A stretch of 64,000 nucleotides of DNA. Source: Candidatus Iainarchaeum sp. GTDB lineage: Archaea > B1Sed10-29 > WALL01. Every line of letters starts with the position of its first letter. Within the stretch, counting starts at the first letter, position 1. Of this stretch, positions 18,300 to 64,000 are shown one piece after another. The notes below the pieces were generated by a model. The model worked only from the letters and a program-made list of their open reading frames with translations, made no database searches and was not told the origin of the DNA. Both the position numbers and the translations under genes were made by a program. Where the stretch lies: contig JAGMCR010000013.1 in NCBI GenBank assembly GCA_023129115.1, forward strand, positions 1-64,000, written 5' to 3'.

Positions 18300-19304
18300 A
18301 TGATACGCGTAGGTGTAAATGGCTACGGGGTAATCGGCAAAAGGGTTGCCTATGCCGTTACGAAGCAGGACGACATGGAGCTCGCTGGCGTCGCCAAGAC
18401 CAAGCCCGACTTCAGCGCCCAGACCGCGCTCGACAAGGGCCAGCCGCTCTACTGCTCCATCCCCGACAACCTCGGCCTGTTCAAGGAAAAGGGGATGGAC
18501 GTCAGGGGCACCATCGACGACTTGGTCGACGCGTCTGACCTTATCGTGGACTGCACGCCCGGCAAAATCGGGGTGCAGAACAAGCCCATGTACGAGAAAA
18601 AAGGCGTTAAAGCCATTTTCGAGGGCGGCGAGGCCGGCGCCACAGCCGAGTGCTCGTTCAACGCCCTGTGCAACTACAGCGACGCAATCGGCAAGGACTT
18701 CGTGCGCGTCGTCTCGTGCAACACGACCGGCCTCGCCCGCACAATCAAGCCACTCACCGGCCTCGGGGAAACCGGGCGCATCCGCGTCGTCTTAATCCGC
18801 CGCGCAGTGGACCCCGGCGAGTCCAAGAAGGGCCCCATCAACGCAATCATCCCGGTGACCACGGTGCCGTCGCACCACGGCCCGGACCTGAAGACCGTTC
18901 TGCCAGACATTGACATCGTCTCAATGGCGGTCGCCGTGCCGACAACAATAATGCACGTGCACACCCTCATGGTTGAGACGGACATAAAGCGCGACGACTT
19001 TATCGAGGCGCTCCGCAAGACCCCGCGCGTCAAGCTCATTTCTTCCGGGGACGGGTTCCGCTCGACCGCGGAAGTGATGGAGTACGCGCGCTCTCTGGGG
19101 AGGTACATGGGCGACCTGTACGAGATTCCGGTGTGGGAGGACACAATCTCGGCCAAGGGCGGCGAGCTTTACTACATCCAGGCCGTGCACCAGGAGTCCG
19201 ACGTCGTCCCGGAAAACATTGACGCAATACGCGCCATGGCCGGGCTCGAGAAGGACGCCATGAAGTCCATCGAAAAGACCAACAAGTCGCTCGGCATCAA
19301 GTGA
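18300..19304 (+). CDS. gap: Type II (archaeal) glyceraldehyde-3-phosphate dehydrogenase
   Basis: VNGYGVIGKRVA, VVSCNTTGL, SHHGPD, HQESDVVPENIDAIRAM. Confidence 0.95.
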   Translation: MIRVGVNGYGVIGKRVAYAVTKQDDMELAGVAKTKPDFSAQTALDKGQPLYCSIPDNLGLFKEKGMDVRGTIDDLVDASDLIVDCTPGKIGVQNKPMYEKKGVKAIFEGGEAGATAECSFNALCNYSDAIGKDFVRVVSCNTTGLARTIKPLTGLGETGRIRVVLIRRAVDPGESKKGPINAIIPVTTVPSHHGPDLKTVLPDIDIVSMAVAVPTTIMHVHTLMVETDIKRDDFIEALRKTPRVKLISSGDGFRSTAEVMEYARSLGRYMGDLYEIPVWEDTISAKGGELYYIQAVHQESDVVPENIDAIRAMAGLEKDAMKSIEKTNKSLGIK

Positions 19305-50085: not shown

Positions 50086-51450
50086 CTATTTTTTTGCCAG
50101 GAATGGGTTCTTCCTCACCAGCGTCTTGTACACATTCCACCAGCCGTCAGCGTCACTCAGGTGCCTCCCGGCCTCGGCTTCCTTTCCCTTCTTCTCGTGC
50201 TTCAGCTTTGCCTTGGCCTTGCCCGTCGGCACCTCGAACTTCGTGGGGTGCCCCCACGTCGTCTGGCCGTGGTACTCCCTCTTCCCCTTCAGCGAATGCC
50301 TTGCCTTCTCATAGCTAAGCTTTGCCCACGCGTGATGCATGTGTGTAAACCACGCCTTCAGCATTTCCTCTCCCGCCTTCTCGACCTTCCGCGCCTCGTA
50401 ATCATCCCTGGACTCGCCCTCCTCCCGCGGCACGATTTTGTAGACCTTTTTCATGTGCTCGAGCGCGTCCTTCCGCGCTGCGTCAAACGGCAGCTCGTAG
50501 TCCTCAAGCCTCACGGCCTCGCCCTGCTGCTTCCGCTCCGCCAGGTCAAACATGGCGTATACCAGGTGATTCACCCCGGGCACGACGCTGTGCAGCGGCC
50601 ACCCGACTTCTAACCACGCAGTGCTTCCTGCAGTCGCGGCGTGGACGCCGGGCTCGGACTTCCTCAGCTCGTAAAGCTCCCTCAGCACATCGGAAAAGTT
50701 TTTTTGGGTCTTTTTTATCTCTCTCTCGTGCTCCGGTGTCCCAATCTTCCCGAGCAGCTTTATGTCGCGGTCCAGCCGCGCCAGGTCGCTCTCAATCGAG
50801 TGCTCGGTGAACGCCTCGCACACCCGCCGCGTCTTGCCGTAGTCAAGCTCGCCCCGATGCTTCAGCGCAAGCGCCCTCATGAAGTCGCCCCGCCGCGACG
50901 CGACGACCTGCTCCGGAACAGTCTCCTTGTTCCCGACCGGCAAAAACGCGTACGACAAGGCAATCAAGTCACCCTTCAGCGTCTCGTACCCCACCCTCTT
51001 TGCCTTAGGCTTGCCCTTGTTCCACTCCACCGCAAAGTCATTCAGGGCGTCCTTCCGAATCTTCTGGCGATTCTCGTACAGGTAGCCCACCATTTTCTGC
51101 ATCCGCTTCACGCGGCTGCCAATGAACGTCTGCCGCAGCTGCATGTTGAAGTGGTGAGCGATTGCGCCCGCGAGCACGTTCTTCTTGAAGCTCTTCCGCT
51201 TCCGAATTGTGTCCACGATTGCCTCGGCCTCGTGGCTTCGCCGTCCCTTCAGCAGGGGGTGCCGCGGCGCCAGCACGCGCGAGAAGTCAAGGAACTGGCC
51301 CCAGTATTCTCCGTCCCTGGCACCGTCGCGCTGCTCCCGCTTATGTATCCACTCGCGGATGCTGCCGTCCCTGATTTGCCCTGGCTTCCTGGCGATTTCG
51401 CCGAAAAAGTCGAACTTCCGCCTGAATTCCAGCTCCATCTTGGGCATCAC
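50086..51450 (-). CDS. Hypothetical basic protein with HTH-like segments
   Basis: VGYETLKGDL and TEHSIESDL resemble HTH recognition helices; divergent from the ATPase gene. Confidence 0.65.
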   Translation of the reverse strand: MMPKMELEFRRKFDFFGEIARKPGQIRDGSIREWIHKREQRDGARDGEYWGQFLDFSRVLAPRHPLLKGRRSHEAEAIVDTIRKRKSFKKNVLAGAIAHHFNMQLRQTFIGSRVKRMQKMVGYLYENRQKIRKDALNDFAVEWNKGKPKAKRVGYETLKGDLIALSYAFLPVGNKETVPEQVVASRRGDFMRALALKHRGELDYGKTRRVCEAFTEHSIESDLARLDRDIKLLGKIGTPEHEREIKKTQKNFSDVLRELYELRKSEPGVHAATAGSTAWLEVGWPLHSVVPGVNHLVYAMFDLAERKQQGEAVRLEDYELPFDAARKDALEHMKKVYKIVPREEGESRDDYEARKVEKAGEEMLKAWFTHMHHAWAKLSYEKARHSLKGKREYHGQTTWGHPTKFEVPTGKAKAKLKHEKKGKEAEAGRHLSDADGWWNVYKTLVRKNPFLAKK

Positions 51451-51483: not shown

Positions 51484-53847
51484 ATGGAATTCAAGCCAAG
51501 GGTCAACTCCCCCCTGGACGCGCTGGAAGACGCCGCAGGCCGCAGCATTTTCGTGGGCCGCAGCCAGGCCCTCCACCGCAAGTACGGCCGCGAGGGCGCC
51601 CTGCTGCTGGGCAAAGTCGCGGAACAGGAAAAATACGGCGAGTTCGTCTACCTCGACGCATTGATGCCCCACACCATTTTCGTGTGCGGTTCAAAAGGCT
51701 CTGGCAAAAGCTATTCGATATCAATCATCGCCGAGGAATTGATTTACAAGAACCCAAATGTCGCAGTCGTAATCATCGACCCCATCGGCATCTTTTGGTC
51801 CATGAAGTACCCAAACCAGGAAGAGTCCGAGCTCGACGAATTGATTCGCATGGGCCTCGCGCCGCGCGGCGTCGCCGAGACGCGAGTCTTCGTCCCGTAC
51901 GGTGTCCGCAACACTTTGCCGCGCGACACCTACGACAAGACGTACGCACTGCGCCCCGCCGACTTGAACGTGGACGACTGGTGCATCACTTTCGACATCG
52001 ACCGGTTCTCCCCAACCGGCCTGCTCCTCGAAAAAACGCTCGAAAAAGTGTTCAACGGCTACAAGACCACGGACAAAAAGCACGTGAACCCCAACCCGGA
52101 CTACGGCCTCGAAGAAATAATCAACTGCCTCAACAACGACGCAGAGCTTTCCTCGAAGACCAAGGGCTTCAAGACGGACTCGCGCCGCGCGCTGACGTCC
52201 CGCTTCGAGTCGGCAAAGTCGTGGGGCATTTTTTCCGCGAGCGGCACTCCGCTCGTCGAATTGTGCCAGGAGGGCAAGGTCTCTGTAATCGACGTCTCGT
52301 TCCTTGACGAAAAAGTCAACGCGCTCGTCATCGGGCTGCTCGCGCGAAAGATTCTTAACGCGCGCAAGCTCGCGACGCGCAAGACCGCGATGAAGCGGCT
52401 CGCCGTGTCCATGGAGGAAGTCCTGGAGACCGGCATCCCGCCGACGTGGCTGTTCATCGACGAGGCCCACACCCTGATTCCCTCGGGCTCGCAGAAGACC
52501 GCCGCCTCGGACGCGCTCATTGAGTACGTGAAGCAGGGCCGCCGCCCGGGATGCTCGCTCGTGATGGCGACGCAGCAGCCCGCCGCGCTCGACACCAAAG
52601 TCCTCTCGCAGCTCGACCTGCTGGTCTGCCACAAGCTCACGTTCGACGACGACATCAAGGCCGTGTTCAAGCGAATGCCCGCGGGCATCCCCAAGGAGTA
52701 TTCCGCCCGATTCATCAAGACGCTCCCAATCGGGTATTGCTTGATTGGCGACAGGAGCGACCACACGAACAGGGTGTTCGCCGCCAAAATGCGGCCGCGG
52801 TTCTCGCAGCACGAGGGCCGCGAGACGCGGAGCGTCGACTTCGAGGAGACCCTGTCCGCGGAACAGGTGGAAGAGCTTGTCGTAAAGATGGTCAAGAAGC
52901 AATTGGTCGACTTCGGCCGCGTGAACCTTTCCAAAATAGACCAATTGGCCCGCACCATCAACAAGCGCTACGGCACCAAAGTCTCTGCCAAGTCAGTGGT
53001 CAAGGCAATCGAGGGCGCGGCGGTGGACAACGAGCAGCTCGTGCTGAAGGAAATCCTTGAGCAGGAGCAGGCCGCGGCCGAGGACTTGCCTGAAGAGCCG
53101 GCGCCCGAGGCGCCGAGCGGCGAGAACCTGCTGGCGTTCACTTCCCAAATCAGCGCGGAGCGGGCGAAGGGCCTGGCATTGAAGCAGCGCAAGGCGAAAT
53201 TATTCGGCTTGTTCGGGGACGAGGAGTCCTTGAAGGACCTGCGCATCGAGTACTGGCCGGTGTACAAGGTGGAGTACGACTATTACCAGGGCAAGGGCTT
53301 CAAGCGCTTGGTGTGCTACGTGGACGGCATGAACGGCGAATTGTTGAGCGTCGGCAGGGCGGGGATGGCCTCGACGCGCGGCGTGGGCCGCTTGACCACA
53401 ATGAACAAGAGCAAGCGCAAGATAATCGCGGCCCTGCGCAAGGGCAAGCAGGCGAGCGCGAAGGGAATCGCGGGCGTCGCCGAAATCACCGAGACGACCG
53501 CGCGGGCGAACGCGGAGGAATTGGCCGAGGACGGCCTGCTCTCTTATCGCGACGACGGCCGCGCCCGGACTTACGTGCTGAAGGAGCAGTTCGACCTGCC
53601 GCAGAAAATCAATGTGCCGGAGTACACTACTCTTGAGTCGCAATTAACGATGGGCGAGGCGAGCGGGTTTGTCCCCACGCCCCGCATCACACAGGAGTCT
53701 GTTTCCGACATCCCCGCGATTTTCGGCGAAGTAAAAATCAAGTCTGTTTCTTTCGTGTACCGCCCGGTCTACCACGCCTCGTTTGCCTCCACGAAGGGCC
53801 CCCGCGACGTCTACATAGACGGCATTGACGGGGCGGTGGCAAGATGA
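51484..53847 (+). CDS. HerA/FtsK-superfamily (DUF87) ATPase with C-terminal wHTH
   Basis: GSKGSGKS, IIDPIG, WLFIDEAH, KQGRRPG..MATQQP; KGIAGVAEITETTARANAEEL wHTH. Confidence 0.85.
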   Translation: MEFKPRVNSPLDALEDAAGRSIFVGRSQALHRKYGREGALLLGKVAEQEKYGEFVYLDALMPHTIFVCGSKGSGKSYSISIIAEELIYKNPNVAVVIIDPIGIFWSMKYPNQEESELDELIRMGLAPRGVAETRVFVPYGVRNTLPRDTYDKTYALRPADLNVDDWCITFDIDRFSPTGLLLEKTLEKVFNGYKTTDKKHVNPNPDYGLEEIINCLNNDAELSSKTKGFKTDSRRALTSRFESAKSWGIFSASGTPLVELCQEGKVSVIDVSFLDEKVNALVIGLLARKILNARKLATRKTAMKRLAVSMEEVLETGIPPTWLFIDEAHTLIPSGSQKTAASDALIEYVKQGRRPGCSLVMATQQPAALDTKVLSQLDLLVCHKLTFDDDIKAVFKRMPAGIPKEYSARFIKTLPIGYCLIGDRSDHTNRVFAAKMRPRFSQHEGRETRSVDFEETLSAEQVEELVVKMVKKQLVDFGRVNLSKIDQLARTINKRYGTKVSAKSVVKAIEGAAVDNEQLVLKEILEQEQAAAEDLPEEPAPEAPSGENLLAFTSQISAERAKGLALKQRKAKLFGLFGDEESLKDLRIEYWPVYKVEYDYYQGKGFKRLVCYVDGMNGELLSVGRAGMASTRGVGRLTTMNKSKRKIIAALRKGKQASAKGIAGVAEITETTARANAEELAEDGLLSYRDDGRARTYVLKEQFDLPQKINVPEYTTLESQLTMGEASGFVPTPRITQESVSDIPAIFGEVKIKSVSFVYRPVYHASFASTKGPRDVYIDGIDGAVAR

Positions 53848-54887
53848 TGCGGGAGCTGGCGAGGCAGCATTACATTGAGACCATGAGGCGGCTCCCGAAG
53901 TATGAGGGCGTCGGCGAGAGCTTCCACGACAGGGAGGCGGAGCGCTACGCAGACTTTTACACGCTCGGCCCCCGGCAGGGCGCGACCCTGGCGAACCTGC
54001 GGGAGCACGGCAGCGAAGAGCACCCCGAGGGCCTGAACGAGAAGAGGGTCACCGAGTGGCTCGCCTCAAAGTTCGTGGATGAGCAGGCCATGGCGCTGAG
54101 GCTTGTGCCGGGCCTTGCCCCGGACCCCGAGTTCAAGAAGATGGCCGACGTCATGGCGCACTGCCGCGAAATCATCAGGAACAAGTTCGGCGAGGGCACC
54201 AAGGAGTTCAAGAGCTTCCGGCTCAAGCACCTCCGCAACACGCTGGTTGACTATACCAACATGTACTTGTACGGCCCGAGGGGCAAGGTCGACCGGGGCT
54301 GGCTCAAGAGCAGGATTGAAAGGTTCGACTACTTGTGGGCAGTGCCCGGCTGGGACCCGCACCCCGAGTTCGCGGGCGTGGGCGAGCCAATCAGGCGGCT
54401 TCGGGAGAGGCAGGAACAGGCCGGCGCAACGCTCGATGAGCCACTGGCGCCAAGGGCTTCGTCGCTGCTCCGCGCCGTCAAGCCCGGGGAAACAACTCCT
54501 ACTCCAACACCAGAACTGGGGGTGTCGCCAGAACAGTCTCCGACGCCAACCGGGGGGACGCCAAAACCGGGGACGCCTGCTCCAACGCAAGAACCGGGGG
54601 TGTCGCCAGAATCGGCGACACCCCCAATTGCTGAGGCTGGGGAACCCGAGAAGCCAATTCCCGTGCTGAAGCAGGAAGAGGAAGAAGACGTGCTTTCCCT
54701 GCTGAAAAAGGAGACCCAAAATGACCTGCTCATCCACGCCCGCACCCTGGCCATGCTCAAGCCAGGAAAAAAGGTGACCATGGGAGACGTGGACCTATTG
54801 TCGTCTAAGATTATGGACCGCGGCATTGGCTACGAGGACGCGAAGAAGATAGCCAGGAAAATCATGGAGCAGGCAAGGCAGGGGTAG
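53844..54887 (+). CDS. Hypothetical protein with PT-rich linker and shared C-terminal module
   Basis: ATGA-coupled to the ATPase; TP..GVSPE duplicated. Confidence 0.7.
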   Translation: MMRELARQHYIETMRRLPKYEGVGESFHDREAERYADFYTLGPRQGATLANLREHGSEEHPEGLNEKRVTEWLASKFVDEQAMALRLVPGLAPDPEFKKMADVMAHCREIIRNKFGEGTKEFKSFRLKHLRNTLVDYTNMYLYGPRGKVDRGWLKSRIERFDYLWAVPGWDPHPEFAGVGEPIRRLRERQEQAGATLDEPLAPRASSLLRAVKPGETTPTPTPELGVSPEQSPTPTGGTPKPGTPAPTQEPGVSPESATPPIAEAGEPEKPIPVLKQEEEEDVLSLLKKETQNDLLIHARTLAMLKPGKKVTMGDVDLLSSKIMDRGIGYEDAKKIARKIMEQARQG

Positions 54888-54892
54888 TTGCC

Positions 54893-55819
54893 ATGAAGGC
54901 GAAGAGCAGCAGGCACAGGGTTGAGGAAGGCATTCGCGGCTCCCCCAAGAACCGGACTGAGCAGGTCGTCCATTTCCTGGAGCCAGGCAAGGACCTCCAC
55001 ATCAAGGACATAACCCAAGAGGCCTACAAATATTTCGACATTGACCGCAAGCAGGTCCTGTCCACACTCATGCAGGGGGCAAAGGGGCCCGGCGCTTTTT
55101 TCGAGAGGATTAAGCCCGCCCATTACCGCCTGACGCCCCTGGGCAAAGAGCTCCAGAAGCTGGTCGAGCTGCCGCCCATGCGCGAGCTCCCGCCCGAGCC
55201 AGAGCCCGAGCCGCCGAAGAGCATTGAGGAAGCGCTGGAAGAGGAGTACTTCAGCATCACGGGCAAGAACCGCTCCAGCAAGCGCGTGCAGGATTCGGCA
55301 AAGCGCTTCAGGAACCTTTTTTTGACGGGCGTGTGGGCAACCGCGGAAAGCGAGGCGCCCAAGGGCTCGACCAGCGGCGTGGTGCGCAGGAAGAGGAGGC
55401 GCATCCTGTCCTGGATTAGCACCCACAAGCGGAACGCTTCGGAGCTCGCGAGGCTTGTGCAGGGCGAGCGCGAGTTTATGTACCCCGAGCTCATGAAGGA
55501 CGCCAAGCCACACCCCGAGCTCGCGGAAAAAATGACTGTGCCAGTGAAAAAGCAGGCTGTCGAGCGCTGGGACTTGGGTGCGAAGTACGACGACGCCATT
55601 TTCGCGGTGTGCAGGGAAAGGGAGTGCACGCCCCAGTTCCAGGACCCGCGCTTCACGGCGAGCGACACCAGCCGCCACCTATTGCTGGCCATGCTGGTGA
55701 GGGACGCCCGGGAAGAGGTCGAGTCATGGGAAAACCCACCCAAGGCCTACGAAAAGGACAAGCTCGGCTATCTGAGGAAAATTGTCGAGAACTGGGTCAA
55801 AAACAAGCACAAGGGTTGA
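54893..55819 (+). CDS. Hypothetical protein with N-terminal wHTH-like domain
   Basis: FFER...HYRLTPLG wing motif. Confidence 0.7.
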   Translation: MKAKSSRHRVEEGIRGSPKNRTEQVVHFLEPGKDLHIKDITQEAYKYFDIDRKQVLSTLMQGAKGPGAFFERIKPAHYRLTPLGKELQKLVELPPMRELPPEPEPEPPKSIEEALEEEYFSITGKNRSSKRVQDSAKRFRNLFLTGVWATAESEAPKGSTSGVVRRKRRRILSWISTHKRNASELARLVQGEREFMYPELMKDAKPHPELAEKMTVPVKKQAVERWDLGAKYDDAIFAVCRERECTPQFQDPRFTASDTSRHLLLAMLVRDAREEVESWENPPKAYEKDKLGYLRKIVENWVKNKHKG

Positions 55820-55885: not shown

Positions 55886-57853
55886 ATGGAGAAGCGCGGC
55901 AGGAAGAAGGGCTACAGGTACACGAAGTACGACCCCAAGCGCTATTACTCTCCTGGCGACGCCCGCATCGAGGTTTGGAAGCGCATCGAGAAAAAGGAGT
56001 TTGAGAAGGGCTTCTTCTCGTACAAGGAGAACCGTGTGCTCGCCATCCAGATGCTCGTCGCGAAGCTCGTGCGGGACAAGGGCCTCCAGGTAAGCGAAAT
56101 CACGAGGGACCACTTCAGGGAACACGGCATGGACTGCCTGATTACTTATTTCAAGTCCAAGGAAAAGGCGCTCCGCGCCGCGGGGTTTTCCGACGAGTTA
56201 ATCACGACCAAGCCGGCGGAGCACGACGTCAGGGACATTCGGAGGGCCGTCCGGCTCATCAAGGGCGTGAAGGCCTCGGAAGACATTGACGACACCTTGG
56301 ACGGGCTGCACCGCAAAGTCTTCGGCAATGTGCCCAAAAAGATTGGCTACCGCTATCTCCTGAAACTCGCGGAGGAGCACACCGGAATTAAATACCGCAC
56401 GCTTTACCAGCTCTTCAACCCGAATTACGCGCGCTTCAAGAAGTACAGCCCCCGGCTCCGGGAGGAAATCCACGCCATCCGCGAGCAGTGGGGCCTCGAG
56501 GGAGAGACGGAGCCGGGCGAAGTGAAGCGCCCGGTGCACGTCCCGGGAGAAAGCCCGTTCAAGATGAGGGGCCTGACCGCCGAGGAAAAAACGCTCCTGC
56601 AGGACATACGCACGGGCTTCAGGAACTGGGACTTGACCTTCCTCTCGAGGAAGAAAAAGATTCCTGGCAATGTATGGACTGTCCTGATACTCCCCGAGGT
56701 CAGGAAGCTTTCGAAAGAGCTGCTCAAGAAAAGCCCTGAGCACGAGCCCAGGCTGCTGAGGATGCTCCGCAGGATGTACAAGCGCTCAAGCCACCGCACG
56801 CGGGGCGACAAGCTCCTCGAGAGAGTCAAGGAGTCCCTCGAGAGGGAAATGCTCCTCGGCGGGCCAGAGACAGGAAAAACGCGGGAGCTCCGGCTGCCGG
56901 CAGGCGTGCTGGACAAGCTGCTCCCGTTCATGACACCGAACCGCCGCCTCCAGGAAGTGCTCGAGGAGGCACAGCAGTACTTTCCCGAGTTGAGTTTCCC
57001 CCAGGCCGAGGCCGCGGTCTATCTCGACAGGAGCAGTATTGACCCCCACATCAACCTGTCTTTCTTTGGCGGCGATTACGTGCGGACCAAGAAGGGCGAG
57101 GAGGCAGCGGCGTCCATTCTCCTGCCGCCGAAGCTTGGGACCCCGGCGAGGGAAGGGCTCGACCAAAAGCGCCTGCAGGAAGAGTCGGCCCGCGAGGAAG
57201 TGGAGCGGCTGAAGCGCGTGGCCGAAGAGGAATTGACCCCGGAGGAGAAAGAAGAACTGTTTGCCGACAAGGCACTGGAGGACTTCACCAGCGCCACCGG
57301 CGTCAAGGGCATGGTCGCCCAGCGGTTCAGGAACTATGTCAGGGCAGGCCCAGAGCATGATGTCAAGACACCGTCGGAGCACGCCACGAAGGAAGAGTTC
57401 AGGCTGCTGGGGCAGGAGATCCCCAAAGCCGGAATCGGCTTCAAGCAATGGCAAATCAAGCAGTGGCTCTCGAGGTACCTTGCGCACCCCGAGCTCAAGA
57501 AGTACCGGCGGGAGGACGAGCCGCTCCATGAAGTCGAGGAAGAGCCGCCCGAGATTCCGGTCCCAAAGACCAAAAAAAGGAAGAAAATCGGGCCGCCAGA
57601 GCCAAAGAAAGAAGAAGAGCCCCCGAAGCCCGCCGGCCGGCCCAGGGAGGTAAAGTCCCTGCTCGAGGGCCTCTCGGCGGCGGACCGGAAGAACTTTGAC
57701 AGCCAGGCCCGCGGCCTCCTCAGGCAATGCGGTGGAGACGCCAGAAAGGCGACGGACCTGCTGGCCCAGAGCGTTTCGCGCCTGGGCTACGGCCCCCGCG
57801 AGGCCAGCAGGATAGCAGCCAAAATAGTCGAAATAGAGAAAAAACTCTACTAA
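55886..57853 (+). CDS. Hypothetical multidomain basic protein, paralog of 57919-61008
   Basis: Shared ~170-aa region KLVRD.GLQVSE.T.DHF...YRTLYQLFNP. Confidence 0.8.
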   Translation: MEKRGRKKGYRYTKYDPKRYYSPGDARIEVWKRIEKKEFEKGFFSYKENRVLAIQMLVAKLVRDKGLQVSEITRDHFREHGMDCLITYFKSKEKALRAAGFSDELITTKPAEHDVRDIRRAVRLIKGVKASEDIDDTLDGLHRKVFGNVPKKIGYRYLLKLAEEHTGIKYRTLYQLFNPNYARFKKYSPRLREEIHAIREQWGLEGETEPGEVKRPVHVPGESPFKMRGLTAEEKTLLQDIRTGFRNWDLTFLSRKKKIPGNVWTVLILPEVRKLSKELLKKSPEHEPRLLRMLRRMYKRSSHRTRGDKLLERVKESLEREMLLGGPETGKTRELRLPAGVLDKLLPFMTPNRRLQEVLEEAQQYFPELSFPQAEAAVYLDRSSIDPHINLSFFGGDYVRTKKGEEAAASILLPPKLGTPAREGLDQKRLQEESAREEVERLKRVAEEELTPEEKEELFADKALEDFTSATGVKGMVAQRFRNYVRAGPEHDVKTPSEHATKEEFRLLGQEIPKAGIGFKQWQIKQWLSRYLAHPELKKYRREDEPLHEVEEEPPEIPVPKTKKRKKIGPPEPKKEEEPPKPAGRPREVKSLLEGLSAADRKNFDSQARGLLRQCGGDARKATDLLAQSVSRLGYGPREASRIAAKIVEIEKKLY

Positions 57854-57918: not shown

Positions 57919-60900
57919 ATGCCCAAGGGTTTGGAGGAAAGGAAGCTCGGCCGCAAGCCCGGCTTTAAGTTCCCGAAGGTCGAGCCGGACAAGCTGCGGC
58001 CAATAATCAAGGATTATCTTGAGAAGAAAAGGGATTCGCTCGCGGACGGCTTCTGGACGCACGAGGACCAGGCGGCGACTGCGGTGCGCATGATGGTCGG
58101 GAAGCTCGTGCGGGACCGCGGCCTGCAGGTGAGCGAAGTCACTCAAGACCATTTCCCTGAGTTTGGCATGGGGAGCGCGCTTAGGGTTTTCGGCTCGAAG
58201 GAAAACGCGCTCAAGGCCGCGGGGTTTTCTGACGAGCTAATCAATACAAAGCCGGCGGAGCACGATGTCGCGAGCATTCGAAACGCGGTCCGCTTGATTG
58301 AGGGCGTCAAGGGCCCGGGGGACATTGACGAGGCTTTGCACAACTTGCACCGCAGGGTGTTCGGTGATTCTCCCAAGCGGGTCAGCTATCGTTATTTGCT
58401 GAAGCTCGCGGAAGAATACACGGACATCAATTATCGCACGCTTTACCAGCTCTTCAACCCGAAGTATTCCCGGTTCAAGGATTTCGACAAGGGCCTCAAG
58501 GACGGCATAAAAGCAATCCGCAGGCACTGGCGCATCGGGGAAAAAGTGGCGGTGAAGCGTGAAGTGTACTCGCCGCTTGACCGCGGTTTGCTGGAGAAGC
58601 GAAAGCGGGCGAGTGCCGACGAGCGAAAGGCGGCTCACTGGTTTAACGTTAATCTCAAGGATGCTAGTACTGCTTCCGTCGGGGGGCTGAGGCGCGGCCT
58701 CACGGTATTGCCGCTGCTTTCGCACGAGGTGCGTGTGGCAATCCTCGCGCGCCTTAAGCCTGAGAACTATGACTATCGCGTGTCTTTCAGGAAAGGCGTC
58801 GTGGGGTTGACTACGAAGGAGCGGGAGGCGATAAGGCCGCACGTGCCCCCCGGGCTCAAGGAGCTTTTTGACGAAATCCCGCTTGGCGGAGTGGACCTGG
58901 AGCTGCCTTCGGCAAAGGCGGCTGAGGAAGACTTGTGGGAGAAGCAGAGGGAGCTCCAGAGGCTGGAGACCCAGAAACTGATTGAGGAGTGGAAGGAAGA
59001 GCTGCTGGAAGAGGGGGAGAGGCAATTGCGGGAGAAGGCGAGGGACGAGCAGGACTACCAGAAAATGCGTAGGGCAGAGGAAGAAAAGCTGGAGAGGCAG
59101 CGCAAGGCGGAGACGTGGAGGCGCTTGCTGAAGGAGAAGAGGGCGGAGCAGGAAAGGGAGGGGAGGGAGAAGGCGCTTGAGGAAAAGAAGAGGCAGCGCC
59201 AGGAAATGAAGCAGAAGCTGTTCGAGGAAAAAGAGGAAAAGAAGCGCTTGGGGATGGAGGCGAAGCGGCTCAAGAAGCAAAAGGAAGAGCAGGAGCGCGA
59301 GGCGCAGAAGGAATGGGAAAAGCAGCAAAAAGAATTGCAGAAACAGAAAGAAGCCGCGGAAGTTGTCGAGAAAGGCGTTGCCTTCTTGGAGGAGTCGGCT
59401 GAGGGAGAGGGTTGGTTCGTTAGTTCTAAGGAGCGTGTGGACCGGGTCCCGCTTTCGTTCTTGTCGGGGGAGCTAGACAAGCCTGGCCCGAGACTAGGGA
59501 AGTATTTTGATGGCATGTCCTCCGAGCAGCTGGAGCGCGTGAAGGCGGCTGCAGACAAAAACGCGGCAAAGCAGGCGGCGAAGAAGGCGGTGAAGCAAAG
59601 GGCGGTGGAAGAGCAGGAGCTGGCGAGGCGGGAGGCCTGGGCGAAGAGACAGGCGGAAATGGAGAAGGCTCGGGCGAAGAGAAAAGAGGAAGTGGAGAAG
59701 GCTCTGGAAGCGAAAGCCGGGGAGGAAGCGAGGCTAATCAAGGAGCTCACCGAAGCCAGCGCCCCAGACCTCCCTGCCATGACACATACCCAGAAGATTT
59801 ACGAGTTCGGCCGCACGCACAAGGGCTTCAGGACAAACGAATTGATGGCGTGGCTGGAGGCACGCGATCCAACCATCTCGCGCAATCGCCATGGCGTGTA
59901 CTATGCTATTGGGCGAATGTACAGGAACAAAAAAGAGCTGTCCAAGACGGACAGCGTCTACACTTTTACTCCGGAGGGGGAGCGCAGCATCAAGCTCCAC
60001 GAGGGCCTCAAGGGGAAGAGAACCCCAGAGACCATGGCCGAAAGAATCTTCTCTTTGGTAGAGCCGGGAGTGGGGTATTCAAGCCACTGGCTTATCGAGA
60101 ACCTGTCCAAGCATTACAAGGAAGACAAGGACCTGGACTCCAAGACGTTCAGCACCAAGATTCACGCCAGCCTGCACACCGGCCTTCTCTTCGAAAGGCC
60201 GGACTATGTTTATTTCCTGACGCCCAGGGGGGTCGAGAACAGGAAGCCGATTGCGTCCGTCCATGACCTCAAGGAAGCGCTGGGCGAGCCCCCCGCAGAA
60301 ATTGCCGGCGAGGCCGTTGAGCTGGAGATTGGCGGCAAGCCCAGAAGGGTCGTGCTCACCCCCAAAGAAAAGGAGATCCTGGGCAAGCTCCGTGGCGGCT
60401 TCGAGAAAAAGACTTTGCGCTTTGTCGCCACCGAAAGGTTCCTCCAGGCTTACGGCAATTTGATAGTGCCGGAGGTGGAAAAGCTGGCACTGAAGTTCCT
60501 CAGGGACAACCCGACTGCCGGGGCACTTGAGACCCTGCGCGTTATAGTGGGCACCATGTACGCGGACCCCAAGACGGCGAGTGCCGGCAGGATTATCAGC
60601 AACGTAAGGGCAGAGCTCGCCAAGGAAGGCATTGAAGTAAAAGAGCCAGCCCCGCAGAAGGCGGTTGCGCCCGAGGGGCCCAGCGCCACGGAGGAAGAGC
60701 TCTGGGCGGAAATAATTGCGCGGCAGAAAGAAGAGGAGAAACAAAAGAAGAAAGAAGAGCCAAAAAAGCCTTCAGGCGCGGGGAAGCCGGGCAGGGCAAA
60801 ATTCGGGGAAGAGCGCCCGCCCGTGTCGCTGAAGGACTTGCCGGCCACAGAACAGTACAACCTCGCTGTCCAGGCCCGCAACCTGCGCAAGAAGTTCAGC

Positions 60901-61008
60901 CCCAGCCAAGCCGTGCGATTCCTGGCCGAGCAGATAGAGGCCAAGGGCTACGGCAAGGCCGACGCAGTAAGAATAGCAAAGGAAATCCTGGAGAAAGAAA
61001 AGCAATAG
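57919..61008 (+). CDS. Hypothetical multidomain protein with coiled coil and two wHTH-like domains
   Basis: E/K-rich coiled coil, VYTFTPEG and VYFLTPRG wing motifs, shared C-terminal module. Confidence 0.8.
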   Translation: MPKGLEERKLGRKPGFKFPKVEPDKLRPIIKDYLEKKRDSLADGFWTHEDQAATAVRMMVGKLVRDRGLQVSEVTQDHFPEFGMGSALRVFGSKENALKAAGFSDELINTKPAEHDVASIRNAVRLIEGVKGPGDIDEALHNLHRRVFGDSPKRVSYRYLLKLAEEYTDINYRTLYQLFNPKYSRFKDFDKGLKDGIKAIRRHWRIGEKVAVKREVYSPLDRGLLEKRKRASADERKAAHWFNVNLKDASTASVGGLRRGLTVLPLLSHEVRVAILARLKPENYDYRVSFRKGVVGLTTKEREAIRPHVPPGLKELFDEIPLGGVDLELPSAKAAEEDLWEKQRELQRLETQKLIEEWKEELLEEGERQLREKARDEQDYQKMRRAEEEKLERQRKAETWRRLLKEKRAEQEREGREKALEEKKRQRQEMKQKLFEEKEEKKRLGMEAKRLKKQKEEQEREAQKEWEKQQKELQKQKEAAEVVEKGVAFLEESAEGEGWFVSSKERVDRVPLSFLSGELDKPGPRLGKYFDGMSSEQLERVKAAADKNAAKQAAKKAVKQRAVEEQELARREAWAKRQAEMEKARAKRKEEVEKALEAKAGEEARLIKELTEASAPDLPAMTHTQKIYEFGRTHKGFRTNELMAWLEARDPTISRNRHGVYYAIGRMYRNKKELSKTDSVYTFTPEGERSIKLHEGLKGKRTPETMAERIFSLVEPGVGYSSHWLIENLSKHYKEDKDLDSKTFSTKIHASLHTGLLFERPDYVYFLTPRGVENRKPIASVHDLKEALGEPPAEIAGEAVELEIGGKPRRVVLTPKEKEILGKLRGGFEKKTLRFVATERFLQAYGNLIVPEVEKLALKFLRDNPTAGALETLRVIVGTMYADPKTASAGRIISNVRAELAKEGIEVKEPAPQKAVAPEGPSATEEELWAEIIARQKEEEKQKKKEEPKKPSGAGKPGRAKFGEERPPVSLKDLPATEQYNLAVQARNLRKKFSPSQAVRFLAEQIEAKGYGKADAVRIAKEILEKEKQ

Positions 61009-61077
61009 TAGTTTCATCCGTATTCAATATCTCCCGCAAACAAAGGTCTTTATAAACTACTCCTGCGTTTATTGCGT

Positions 61078-64000
61078 ATGCCCAAGCGCGGAAAGAAAAA
61101 GCGTGGCTCCAGGTTCAGCGTCGACAAGGCGGTTGTCCATCTCGAGAGCCGCATCGATTCCGGCGAGGGCTGGCCGCTCACACAAGGGAGGAGGCGGCCT
61201 GATGGCTTGCCGGCCTCTTTTTTGGGCAAGAAGTTTGGCGTTAGCACGGCCACGGTTTTACGCCACTTCGAAGGCATCAGCGCCGGGCACAAGAAGCGCC
61301 TTGCAACAACAGTCAAGAAAAACGCAGCAATCCAGGCAGCGAAGCGCGAGAGCGGCGAAGTAGGCAAGCTCTTCAAGAGGAGGGGGGACGCAATCCTCCA
61401 CATAGAGCAGCTCGTCCAGTCCGGCGAGGGCTGGCCGATTACCGATGGCGTACCAAGTAAGTATGGCATACCAATCCACGGGCTGGCGAGGCGCTTTGGA
61501 GTCGCCCCCGAGACTGTGAGGGCGTGGTTCGATACAATGTCTGCCACGCACACAAAACAAATCAAGGCAGCAGTGAAGAAAAACGAAAGAATCCAAAAAA
61601 AGAAGCGCGAGACCGAAGGCCAGGCGACGGCGTGGACAAAGAAAAATCTTGACGCCGCCCTTAATCACTTGGACGGGCTCGTCCAGTCCGGCGAGGGCTG
61701 GCCGTTGGGCAAGGGCAGGAGGCGCGCCGATGGGGCGCCGCTCACTCTCCTGGCAGCGCAGCTTGGCTATTCCCACAAGGGGGTGACTCACTGGTTTGAC
61801 AACATCACTCCCAGGCACGCGGCTCGCTTGGCAAAGATTGTCGCGAAAAACAATGCCGTCCAAGAAAAAAAGAAGGCGGCCGGCGAGCCCAGGCTGTCGG
61901 CAGCGGGGATAAACTGCGAGGCTGCCCTGTCCCATTTGGAGTCGCTTGTTAAGTCTGGTGCCGGGTGGAGCCTGCACTACGTAAGGCGCTCCGACAGCGT
62001 GCCGACCAGTATTGTGGCCAATCACTTGGGGGTTTCTTATTCGACGGCCATGCGCTTGTTTGAGAAGCTTCACCCCAGCCACGAGAAGCGCGTGAAGAAA
62101 GTCGTGAATGCAAACAAGCGGCTGCAGAAGAAGCTGGAAAAGCTCTATGGGCCGCTTAATCCCAAAACTCGGGCGCAGCTCGAAAAGGCCCTCGGCCACT
62201 TGGACTCGCTTGTGAAGTCGGGCGAGGGGTGGGAGCTGGCCGGCGGCAGGCCGCCGAAGCATGGTGTCCCCTACGGCGTTTTGGCCGATAAGTTCAACAT
62301 GACGAACGCAGGCGTGCGCGTGTGGTTCACCAATATGGGGAGCGTCCACGCGAAGCGGCTGAAAAAGATTGTTGCGGCGAATGACCGGATTCGGAAGAAA
62401 AAACTGGGGACCGAGGGGGTCTCGCGGGCGGAGGCGGTAATGCGGCGGGAGGCCGCCATCGAGCACCTTGAAGAGCGCGTCAATTCCGGGGAGGGCTGGT
62501 CTATTAAGGGGCGGAGGACGGCTGACGCGATTCCTTTCACGCTTTTGGGCAAGAAGTTCAACAGGCGCGCCAATATTGTTGCGGCATGGTTCAAGAACAT
62601 GCCTGCAGGCCACAAGAAGCGCGTGGAAAGGGTGCTCAGGAAGAACGCTAAGCTGTGGGAGAGGACGGGAGAATCCACGTTGCACAAGAACCGCGGGCAA
62701 GCAATTTCTTATCTCGAGTCCCGCGTGGAGTCGGGCGAGGGCTGGGACACTGCCTATGTCAAGCATGCGCTGGGCGTTCCCCTCCAGCTTTTGGTCGAGC
62801 ACTTTAAGACAAGCGTGACCACGCCGGGGAAGTGGTTCGCGGACGTGCCGGCTGCCCACAAGAAGCGCATCAAGAAGGTCGTGAAAGAGAATGATGCGCT
62901 TCAGTACGAAAACGTGGATACTGTCGGCCGCTGGGCACAGGACAGGCACGAGGCGTTGTCCCACTTGGAGAATCGTGTGAAGTCCGGCGAGGGCTGGCCG
63001 TTGCGCGGCAGGAAGTGGGGCAAGCCCCCGTATACTCTATTGGCGGAGCATTTCAATGTCGCCTCGCCCACTGTAAAGCGTTGGTTCGAAAAAATTGGTG
63101 AATCGCACCACGCGCGCCTCAACAAAGTGTTGACGGAGAACACAGTTCTCCAAAAGAAAAAGGGGGAGGGTGTGCTCTCCCCACAAGAATTGAGGAAGCT
63201 TGAGAAATCACTCGCCTTCCTCGAGGGCCGTGTTGGGTCGGGCGAGGGCTGGTCCAGGCGCTACGGCCGCAGGCACCCCGACCGCTTGCCGGTCATGCTT
63301 CTGGCCGACGGGCTTAATGCAAGCAAGGAGAAGGTCAAGCAGTGGTTCTCGAAGGCCACTCCAGGCCATGTAGAGCGCTTGGCGAAAGTCGTTGAGGCGA
63401 ACGACGAGCTCCAGGACGCGAAGCCCCCACAGAAGTCCAGCACGTCCAGTGTCGTGGTACTCAAGAAAATCAACGCGGCCATGGGCCGCCTAGACGAATT
63501 GCTGGAGGAGGGCGGGTGGCGCCCCTCTTGGCGCGCGGACGGTGTGCCTGTTTCCGTCATCGCGAAGGAGATGAAGAAGAGTGGCCCAACAGTGAGGTAC
63601 TGGCTGGAGAGGATGACCGAGGAACAAAAGGCGCGGTTGACCGCACAAGTGAAAAAGAATGCTGGGATTCAGGCCGCGAGAGCTGAAGAATCGAAGAGGC
63701 AGGCAGAAGAAATCAAAAAGGCGAAGGCGGCCGAGCGCGGGAGGCAGAAGCAAGCCGAGCGGCTTGCGGAGAGGGAGAAAAAGATTGATGATTCACTTGA
63801 CCACTTGAAAACATTGCTTGGGGGGGATGGCTGGTCGCTGAAGCACGGAAGAAACCGGGTGGACCGGGCGCCGGTTCGCATTATGGGCAAGCTTCACGGC
63901 GTCAGCCGGCTGACCGCCGCCTCGTGGATGAACAACGCGACCGAAGAGCAGAAGCAGCGGCTCGCGGTTCTCGTGGGGGAGAATGACGCAATCCAGGCGG
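61078..64000 (+). CDS. Tandem HTH-like repeat protein, at least 974 aa, runs off the window (not in ORF track)
   Basis: Hand translation from ATG 61078 has no stop; 11 repeats with SGEGW-type motif; TTTATAA at ~61049. Confidence 0.85.
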   Translation, partial: MPKRGKKKRGSRFSVDKAVVHLESRIDSGEGWPLTQGRRRPDGLPASFLGKKFGVSTATVLRHFEGISAGHKKRLATTVKKNAAIQAAKRESGEVGKLFKRRGDAILHIEQLVQSGEGWPITDGVPSKYGIPIHGLARRFGVAPETVRAWFDTMSATHTKQIKAAVKKNERIQKKKRETEGQATAWTKKNLDAALNHLDGLVQSGEGWPLGKGRRRADGAPLTLLAAQLGYSHKGVTHWFDNITPRHAARLAKIVAKNNAVQEKKKAAGEPRLSAAGINCEAALSHLESLVKSGAGWSLHYVRRSDSVPTSIVANHLGVSYSTAMRLFEKLHPSHEKRVKKVVNANKRLQKKLEKLYGPLNPKTRAQLEKALGHLDSLVKSGEGWELAGGRPPKHGVPYGVLADKFNMTNAGVRVWFTNMGSVHAKRLKKIVAANDRIRKKKLGTEGVSRAEAVMRREAAIEHLEERVNSGEGWSIKGRRTADAIPFTLLGKKFNRRANIVAAWFKNMPAGHKKRVERVLRKNAKLWERTGESTLHKNRGQAISYLESRVESGEGWDTAYVKHALGVPLQLLVEHFKTSVTTPGKWFADVPAAHKKRIKKVVKENDALQYENVDTVGRWAQDRHEALSHLENRVKSGEGWPLRGRKWGKPPYTLLAEHFNVASPTVKRWFEKIGESHHARLNKVLTENTVLQKKKGEGVLSPQELRKLEKSLAFLEGRVGSGEGWSRRYGRRHPDRLPVMLLADGLNASKEKVKQWFSKATPGHVERLAKVVEANDELQDAKPPQKSSTSSVVVLKKINAAMGRLDELLEEGGWRPSWRADGVPVSVIAKEMKKSGPTVRYWLERMTEEQKARLTAQVKKNAGIQAARAEESKRQAEEIKKAKAAERGRQKQAERLAEREKKIDDSLDHLKTLLGGDGWSLKHGRNRVDRAPVRIMGKLHGVSRLTAASWMNNATEEQKQRLAVLVGENDAIQA

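Follow-up and report, generated by a model that had tools for sequence, protein, structure and literature searches.

The array gene and its repeat module

A stretch of 64,000 nucleotides from the archaeon Candidatus Iainarchaeum sp. (contig JAGMCR010000013.1; G000:C5:1-64000, hereafter the window) ends in a gene encoding a long array of helix-turn-helix (HTH) repeats. The source genome (G000) comprises 1.25 Mb in 19 contigs and is 88.6% complete. The open reading frame (ORF) of the array gene (61078..64000, forward strand, within the window) extends to contig position 64926 (G000:C5:61078-64926) and encodes P0001, a protein of 1282 aa with 19.5% K+R and 11.5% D+E. Twelve repeat copies were found in P0001, 11 in tandem and the 12th lying 222 aa beyond the 11th, and a single (13th) copy was detected by profile match in the upstream 1029-aa gene (59362..59586, forward strand). 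The original prediction, made from the sequence of the window, had described at least 11 repeats. Its anchors (61159, 61420, 61687, 61954, 62218, 62485, 62731, 62983, 63238, 63505 and 63820) and their periods (87, 89, 89, 88, 89, 82, 84, 85, 89 and 105 aa) were reproduced exactly, and all 11 recognition-helix octamers quoted in it are present.

Based on profile matches, the repeats lie on the forward strand at 61117-61350, 61375-61611, 61642-61875, 61912-62139 and 62176-62403 (repeats 1-5), 62443-62670, 62686-62913, 62941-63165 and 63196-63423 (repeats 6-9), 63463..63684 (repeat 10), 63778..64000 (repeat 11, ending at contig position 64008, just beyond the window) and contig 64441-64665 (repeat 12). 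Repeats 1-9 share a layout of helix 1, a GxGW loop, the HTH (helices 2-3) and a long helix 4 with an invariant Asn. A charged helical spacer after repeat 10 accounts for the 105-aa period. Repeat 11 is followed by a Pro/basic linker, a module that we label winged-helix-like from sequence comparison (contig 64081-64347, forward strand), repeat 12 and a C-terminal module of ~80 aa (contig 64675-64923, forward strand). The winged module matches the protein P0003 at E 2e-8 (leave-one-out E 5e-4), and neither it nor the C-terminal module has a Pfam match. The rest of the gene had originally been singled out as the place to look for an effector domain or a shared C-terminal module. The latter was found (leave-one-out E 1e-8) and recurs in the genes at 54893 and 55886, while no catalytic, nuclease or effector domain was recognised in P0001 by Pfam, NCBIfam, PHROGs or PADLOC. 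A further C-terminal repeat with a G-W anchor at aa ~1245-1282 was dropped at E 0.11.

A TATA-box-like motif was found in the sequence at 61049..61056 (forward strand), 29-22 nt upstream of the array ATG. Read against the usual spacing of archaeal promoters, it suggests that the array gene has its own, nearly leaderless predicted transcript. Comparable motifs were seen in front of three further genes, those at 57919, 55886 and 51484.

The 12 repeats of P0001 show a mean pairwise identity of 32% (21-43%) and net charges of +2 to +10, and five positions (G, G, W, P, N) are invariant across 16 aligned copies. With copy 12 left out, a profile of copies 1-11 plus the one in the upstream gene still recovers it at E 3e-13 and matches three copies from the related genome G002 at E 1e-18 to 1e-11, which places the repeat far beyond chance. 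As DNA, the copies are 60-73% identical over their best 58-63 nt, and a 24-kb contig of run X1, a cold seep metagenome that is possibly the source, covers the array gene with zero differing letters; on these grounds mis-assembly of the gene was rejected. Runs X2 and X3 cover the gene in part, with no differences listed. The repeat tree is star-like (1 of 13 inner branches supported), and the order of duplication is not recoverable from it. Semi-conserved His residues were seen in columns 10 (helix 1, 8/12) and 61 (helix 4, 9/12); both fade in repeats 10-12 and in the kin copies.

In the AF2 model, the ~78-aa unit consists of four helices (H3-16, H34-41, H45-53 and H57-80; pLDDT 89, pTM 0.73). 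Helices 2-3 show the HTH residue pattern in the column table of the 12 copies. In the HTH numbering that we presume for the repeat columns, two short helices flank a turn (Gly-like position 9; hydrophobic 4, 8, 15 and 18) and are packed on a third. Seven Pfam families (HTH_Tnp_4, HTH_23, HTH_72, Homeodomain, HTH_Tnp_ISL3, HTH_DeoR and HTH_28) exceed their cut-offs when summed over P0001, HTH_28 with 26.3 against 25, and each of them passes on at most one single stretch of the protein. The model and these matches agree with the HTH-like character proposed originally. The closest sequence match of the repeat among solved structures is the engrailed homeodomain (E 0.012). Foldseek with the repeat model returned nothing at E<=0.001, the weak rows being mostly HTH regulators; the best structure match (VIA; Z 5.3, rmsd 3.3, 61 aligned) is to a generic helical protein, and the ESM Atlas gave leads only, all <0.9. 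None of the structural matches was significant. A three-unit model, computed from a 9-row alignment, reached a pLDDT of 86 and a pTM of 0.49, with linkers of 4-7 residues from helix 4 to the next helix 1. High pLDDT together with low pTM points to well-folded beads without a confident common frame. Weak PPR-like rows from Foldseek have a TM of 0.15.

A search of the repeat profile against 1.84 billion representatives gave 33 matches. Four of them span the whole unit, namely P0001, the protein encoded next to it upstream and two from G002; the remaining ones cover 20-55 positions, mostly the HTH core. Word-based searches, which have limited sensitivity, gave the same picture, with a single addition, a close relative of a protein from the genome G004. 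Profile comparison identified single diverged copies in L019 (probability 95%), L021 (91%) and two G004 proteins (81% and 75%); a first, weaker L021 segment (18738-18953) reached a probability of only 6% and was dropped. Once the diverged copies had been added, full-length matches within a sample of 31 genomes of the phylum were found in G000 and in 4 of the 5 other genomes of its family, in part by construction, while the 25 genomes beyond the family had none. Weak partial matches in four of these 25 (E 1e-4 to 4e-3, 29-49 of 78 positions) were taken as generic HTH cores. Among viral contigs, no relative was present in 9 pattern matches, by a method that finds close relatives only, and the mostly openly accessible literature gave no account of the module or its cassette in the main texts. 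Taken over the 31 genomes and the representative search, the module was found in one DPANN family only. The family had not been recognised in the original prediction, and the searches bear this out: judged by its sequence, the repeat is an HTH module with no catalogued family.

Variability of the recognition helix

Positions 12, 13, 16 and 17, which we take to be the canonical HTH contact positions of the repeat columns, are 0, 5, 12 and 8% identical among the 12 copies (mean 6%). The corresponding value is 30% for the 27 other exposed helix columns (P 0.0005, column permutation) and 18% for the 20 columns left after conserved polar ones are dropped (P 0.0016). Position 12 carries 12 different residues in 12 copies (chance 0.003-0.015, for a column picked post hoc). 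Thus, of the constant scaffold with variable contacts described originally, the variable contacts stand, and the constancy is overstated at 32% identity. Each of the two full comparisons of orthologous repeats has 2 of 10 residues of helix 3 retained. In the cassette orthologue pair P0035/P0036, which is 80% identical, the bias recurs: the contact positions differ at 8 of 16 (P 0.006 when compared with all sites, 0.02 with polar sites), under a motif rule that was fixed only after the pair had been seen.

As a control, five unrelated proteins with at least five HTH cores by a simple pattern were taken from the 33 profile matches. Four of these arrays show little or no contrast between contact and other positions, and the fifth, P0015, shows a stronger one than P0001 (contact identity 0.10 versus 0.50 at other exposed positions). 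The contact contrast is therefore neither automatic nor unique to P0001, and the array architecture is not unique either. The simple pattern missed repeat 11 and took one false P0001 segment, and the figures from the column table are preferred. P0015 is an unrelated protein of 1312 aa with at least 14 distinct ~59-aa HTH repeats, a more constant scaffold and very variable contacts. To judge by its sequence, it is a cleaner example than P0001 of a variable reader on a constant scaffold.

It might be supposed that successive repeats read successive subsites of 4-6 bp by a transferable code and can be reordered. The regular 82-89-aa period with short linkers, the 12 different residues at position 12 and the five invariant scaffold residues would suit such a colinear reader. 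However, the scaffold identity is low, the inter-unit geometry is not confident in the model, several units look like poor base readers, and the copy number at the position is 12 in G000 versus 2 in G002. In addition, a site of at least ~50 bp would go far beyond the need of a ~1.2-Mb genome. We consider colinear reading distinctly improbable.

The reading that we prefer, and to which we give about an even chance, is that P0001 binds DNA multivalently through units with separate, weak and fast-changing preferences, that it acts by occupying or bridging DNA, and that conflict is the probable driver. In its favour we count the HTH core and the independent units of the models, the positive net charge of the repeats, the contact contrast and its recurrence in P0035/P0036 and in a winged array of G004, the fast and swappable cassette, and the separate expansion of another DNA-binding module in G004. 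A number of observations weigh against it. DNA binding by P0001 is itself a prediction, and no target, host or virus was identified for the protein. The exposure of helix columns was deduced from hydrophobicity, not from coordinates, and about 10 further columns are as variable as the contact columns (<=12% identity). R, K, Q, N or H occur at only 19 of 48 contact residues; the contact residues of repeat 6 are A-N-A-A, and repeat 7 carries Pro at a helix core position. Every module of the array gene diverges fast (33-50%), not helix 3 alone. A ratio of nonsynonymous to synonymous rates (dN/dS) above 1 was not found in the upstream gene (0.35), in the C-terminal third of the array gene (~0.55 against an orthologue on the metagenome contig L118) or in a second array from G004. 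The repeats of P0001 are synonymously saturated (synonymous difference, pS, 0.66 versus 0.65 at random), and the contact codons differ about as much as random ones would (nonsynonymous difference, pN, 0.75 versus 0.73 +/- 0.024), contact identity being 6% against a random expectation of 7 +/- 2%. Since the contact codons are at this level, relaxed constraint explains the contact variability equally well. The contact positions rank among the least constrained of the repeat, and diversifying selection and relaxed constraint are inseparable on the array gene alone.

Relaxed constraint would also be expected if the repeat were a degenerate HTH derivative that binds protein or RNA, or if the gene had arisen by domain shuffling at an insertion hot spot and were under weak constraint. 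Typical HTH residues have been lost from the copies of relatives, P0003 and P0004 have no Pfam HTH match, and a dN/dS of 0.35-0.55 is relaxed in comparison with 0.10-0.23 for the neighbours. On the other hand, the 1282-codon frame is intact and has its own TATA-like motif, pN at non-contact positions is 0.45 between the repeats of P0001, well below pS, most copies have the canonical HTH pattern, and those cassette modules that could be labelled look like DNA-binding types (partly by eye). Such a non-DNA role, or drift, seems about as improbable to us as colinear reading.

Gene content and turnover of the cassette

The array gene belongs to a cassette whose left flank is a conserved HerA-like (DUF87, by Pfam) ATPase gene (51484..53847, forward strand), which none of the order's 13 genomes lacks, and whose right flank is a conserved convergent gene for 95 aa (contig 64926-65210, reverse strand), present in 17 of the 31 phylum genomes and with no NCBIfam match. 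The nearest relatives of the HerA-like protein are recorded under names such as Nanobdellati archaeon, Ca. Iainarchaeum archaeon and Ca. Micrarchaeota archaeon, which places G000 in a small DPANN phylum. Between the HerA-like gene and the array gene, four cassette genes lie on the forward strand. The first (53844..54887) encodes 347 aa with a C-module at its end (leave-one-out E 9e-5), and the second (54893..55819, 308 aa) contains, by module comparison, a winged-HTH-like (wHTH-like) module and the shared module. The third (55886..57853, 655 aa) combines an N-module paralogous to that of the gene at 57919 with the array C-terminal module and the C-module, and the fourth (57919..61008, 1029 aa, P0002) comprises the N-module, the repeat copy, two wHTH-like modules and the C-module. 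All five cassette modules are restricted to the array locus in G000, except that the winged module has one weak, partial match elsewhere (E 0.008). PADLOC 2.0, which covers known anti-phage systems, gave no match for 7 of 7 orphan cassette proteins; the HerA-like protein alone matched.

In 7 of the 13 order genomes (G003, G006, G007 and G009-G012), the HerA-like gene and the 95-aa gene are at most 70 nt apart. The gap is 1.4 kb in G008 and 8.5-11 kb in G000, G002 and G005, and the loci of G001 and G004 are broken by contig ends. In the long gaps there are 4-5 orphan genes, most of them large and basic, drawn from a common pool of modules; in L023, two such genes lie slightly more distant from HerA. 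At the array position, G002 encodes a 550-aa protein with two repeats, neither of which exceeds 36% identity to any copy in G000; for seven housekeeping neighbours, identity between the two genomes is 73-88%. The L118 contig (1.5 kb) carries an orthologue of the C-terminal third of the array, spanning the end of repeat 11, the winged module, repeat 12 and the C-terminal module, that is 35% identical versus 86% for the flank (dN 0.66 versus 0.10). The 95-aa flank is 92% identical with dS 0.15 in G002, and 86% identical with dS 0.69 in L118. By this one flank gene, G002 is nearer to G000 than L118 is, yet it holds another allele, which suggests that array alleles were replaced or lost by recombination. 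Overall, the cassette changes at several times the rate of the flanking genes, and its gene content is swapped between close relatives.

Some further observations were made at these loci. The single 400-aa gene at the site in G008 (L122:580-1782) has a C-terminal half resembling an S-adenosylmethionine-dependent methyltransferase by eye. The dS of the 95-aa gene to G002 is far below the 0.47-0.94 of other genes, a hint of recent recombination. The helical C-module (~65 aa) ends the otherwise different proteins encoded at 53844-54887, 55886-57853 and 57919-61008, occurs in kin proteins too (five of seven proteins are recovered leave-one-out, at E 5e-17 to 2e-3), and is missing from the array protein; it could be a docking or export signal. 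A divergently transcribed gene at 50086-51450 (reverse strand) encodes a basic orphan of 454 aa with no Pfam match; five other loci have relatives of it upstream of HerA. G000 carries an insert (G000:C5:65367-68618) between the 95-aa gene and tRNA-Arg that is absent from the G002 locus. By eye, its genes resemble those for a regulator of the NikR type, small membrane proteins, a HicB-like protein and a pair of nucleotidyltransferase and HEPN proteins. Dispersed, partly palindromic element families occur in G000 with 9-36 strand matches each at <=3 mismatches (for example, C5:7699, 9064, 12061, 40355, 44740, 44907, 65298 and 68817); two of the families are also present in L017, and one element lies ~370 nt 3' of the array gene. 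These elements are possible candidate targets of P0001. No CRISPR-like array was found in a 24-mer scan of the 88.6%-complete genome: 32 24-mers occur at least 4 times on one strand, and all belong to dispersed families.

The ATPase gene next to the cassette brings up the alternative that P0001 organises the chromatin or chromosome independently of sequence, gripping the backbone and bridging or compacting DNA, perhaps with the HerA-like motor, while its groove residues drift since no bases are read. Basic repeats with long charged helices, contact codons at the random level, the many non-reading residues at contact positions and the adjacency of cassette and HerA-like gene in the family are all consistent with this. 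Nevertheless, the contact positions vary beyond other exposed ones, which would not be expected from drift alone. Among 80 HerA-relative loci (a count that leaves out HerA and any ORF overlapping it in an opposite frame) the most frequent neighbour family, metabolic enzyme-like by eye, occurs in 36. With no fixed neighbourhood and an empty site in 7 of 13 HerA-keeping genomes, the association with HerA looks positional, and a functional link was down-weighted. Moreover, housekeeping architectural proteins are rarely as low as 35% identical between close relatives, so that the divergence from L118 would be odd for one. We regard an organiser as rather unlikely.

The last cassette gene of G004 (L121:2850-7124, G004:C30) encodes 1424 aa with five tandem winged-helix-like repeats of ~93-96 aa that are 62% identical, a sixth further on (by eye) and one copy of the array module. 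In the five repeats, identity is 39% in helix 3 and 69% outside it, with dN of 0.59 and 0.20, a bias like that of the contact positions in P0001. G004 thus appears to have expanded a different DNA-binding module independently at the same cassette position, and this younger winged array is better suited than P0001 to tests of selection. Two of its features add to the case against fast-changing preferences under conflict: dS is also raised in helix 3 (2.1 versus 0.91; dN/dS 0.28 versus 0.22), as if segments had been exchanged, and in the youngest repeat pair, W1/W5, helix 3 is kept about as well as the rest. KRAB zinc-finger proteins are known for an arms race. A bolder reading, which we think doubtful, would make the HerA-flanked cassette an archaeal counterpart of the KRAB-zinc-finger clusters, with arrays re-expanded and helices retuned under conflict, alleles swapped between species and specificities portable. 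The 12 four-helix units of G000 and the 5-6 winged units of G004 would then be repeated expansions, and mobile elements, viruses or the host cell would be the conflict partners. If true, the cassette would be a natural, metal-free modular platform for DNA reading.

Known systems and the proposed role

The closest known systems are the crenarchaeal CRISPR-repeat-binding proteins Cbp1/Cbp2 and CEH-100. In Cbp2, a basic linker connects two HTH domains that do not interact; the protein binds CRISPR repeats and is similar to Pax and Myb (PMC3597662). Cbp1 and Cbp2 are likewise archaeal proteins of imperfect tandem HTH repeats, but they have 2-3 repeats versus 12 in P0001, and their domains keep conserved residues across species on a fixed target (PMC3597662), whereas the helices of orthologous P0001 repeats are not conserved. 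The high pLDDT and low pTM of the three-unit model would be consistent with linked, non-interacting domains as in Cbp2, as far as a prediction goes. The Cbp family model NF040595 gave no match at the array locus at E<=1 and two sub-cut-off matches elsewhere. CEH-100 of C. elegans, the most extreme case according to a 2015 review, has 12 homeodomains (PMC4901127), the same unit count as P0001, and the ZF-class/ZFHX, Pax and Myb proteins are likewise multi-HTH (PMC4901127; PMC3597662). Unlike homeodomains, the P0001 unit of ~78 aa has a GxGW loop and a long fourth helix, and is archaeal and family-restricted. Its repeats share W-F in the recognition helix with homeodomains. The homeodomain helix 3 motif is W-F-x-N-x-R; W occurs in 10, F in 10, N in 4 and R in 0 of the 12 repeats, so the full motif is not present.

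As in C2H2 zinc-finger arrays, the units appear to be beads on a string that vary at few groove-facing helix positions (PMC3113560), and copy number differs between relatives. The fold is another one, the unit has triple the length, no effector domain was recognised, and no code has been demonstrated. Cys2His2 ligands are missing, with one Cys in all repeat columns and no zinc-finger Pfam match. The original analogy with zinc-finger arrays survives in anatomy, as independent beads with their own faces, and is weakened by contact codons that are random, as drift would give. The likeness to transcription activator-like effectors (TALEs), also proposed, fares worse and is not supported. TALE-likes (TALE, RipTAL, Bat and MOrTL) are prokaryotic tandem helical repeats with variable residues too, built of 33-aa repeats with one base-specifying residue in a superhelix (PMC4787788). 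P0001 consists of HTH units with a period of 82-105 aa instead of ~33 aa, no confident rigid packing in the three-unit model and a whole variable helix face; in place of a single specifying residue, four contact and ~10 other columns are at <=12% identity, over a scaffold at 32%.

Several HTH units per chain are also found in uncharacterised prokaryotic arrays (P0015, P0006, P0005 and others; Bacteroidota HTH_23 clusters), but those of the P0015/P0006/P0005 type match only 20-55 positions of the module and not the whole. TnsD proteins have C-terminal multi-HTH regions that serve a transposon (PMC10293859). In a survey of archaeal domains, HTH ranks with the most abundant groups, and such arrays are unmentioned in the available part of it (PMC13607799). 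What is new is the uncatalogued HTH module, the unusually long array and the fast-turnover cassette; the HTH fold and similar uncharacterised arrays were already known.

Returning to the multivalent binder that we prefer, we suggest the following mode of action. P0001 would be a cytoplasmic, non-catalytic protein of twelve separately folding HTH units and one winged-helix-like unit on short linkers. Helix 3 of each unit would enter the major groove, with the basic loop and helix 4 adding a grip on the backbone. Each unit would have its own weak sequence preference, and avidity over several units would give tight binding of a long site or of several dispersed ones, in a mode akin to a zinc-finger array or to the linked HTH domains of Cbp1, Pax and Myb rather than to a TALE with one base per repeat. 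More tentatively, the reading faces may change because the targets do, these being mobile elements, viruses or the DNA of a partner cell, and P0001 may act by occupying or bridging DNA, alone or through a partner recruited by the C-terminal module. The frame, repeats, modelled fold, variability pattern, distribution and cassette turnover are computed results; DNA binding, specificity, target and role are what we infer.

If the units do read sequence, P0001 would be a very long prokaryotic HTH array, with a unit count equal to that of CEH-100. It would also provide a test set for zinc-finger-like chaining of natural HTH units: twelve helices on one scaffold, orthologues with altered helices, and a younger second array at the locus. 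For the small-genome DPANN lineage itself, a family-specific, rapidly swapped cassette of large, probably DNA-binding proteins poses the question of what DNA these cells need to recognise.

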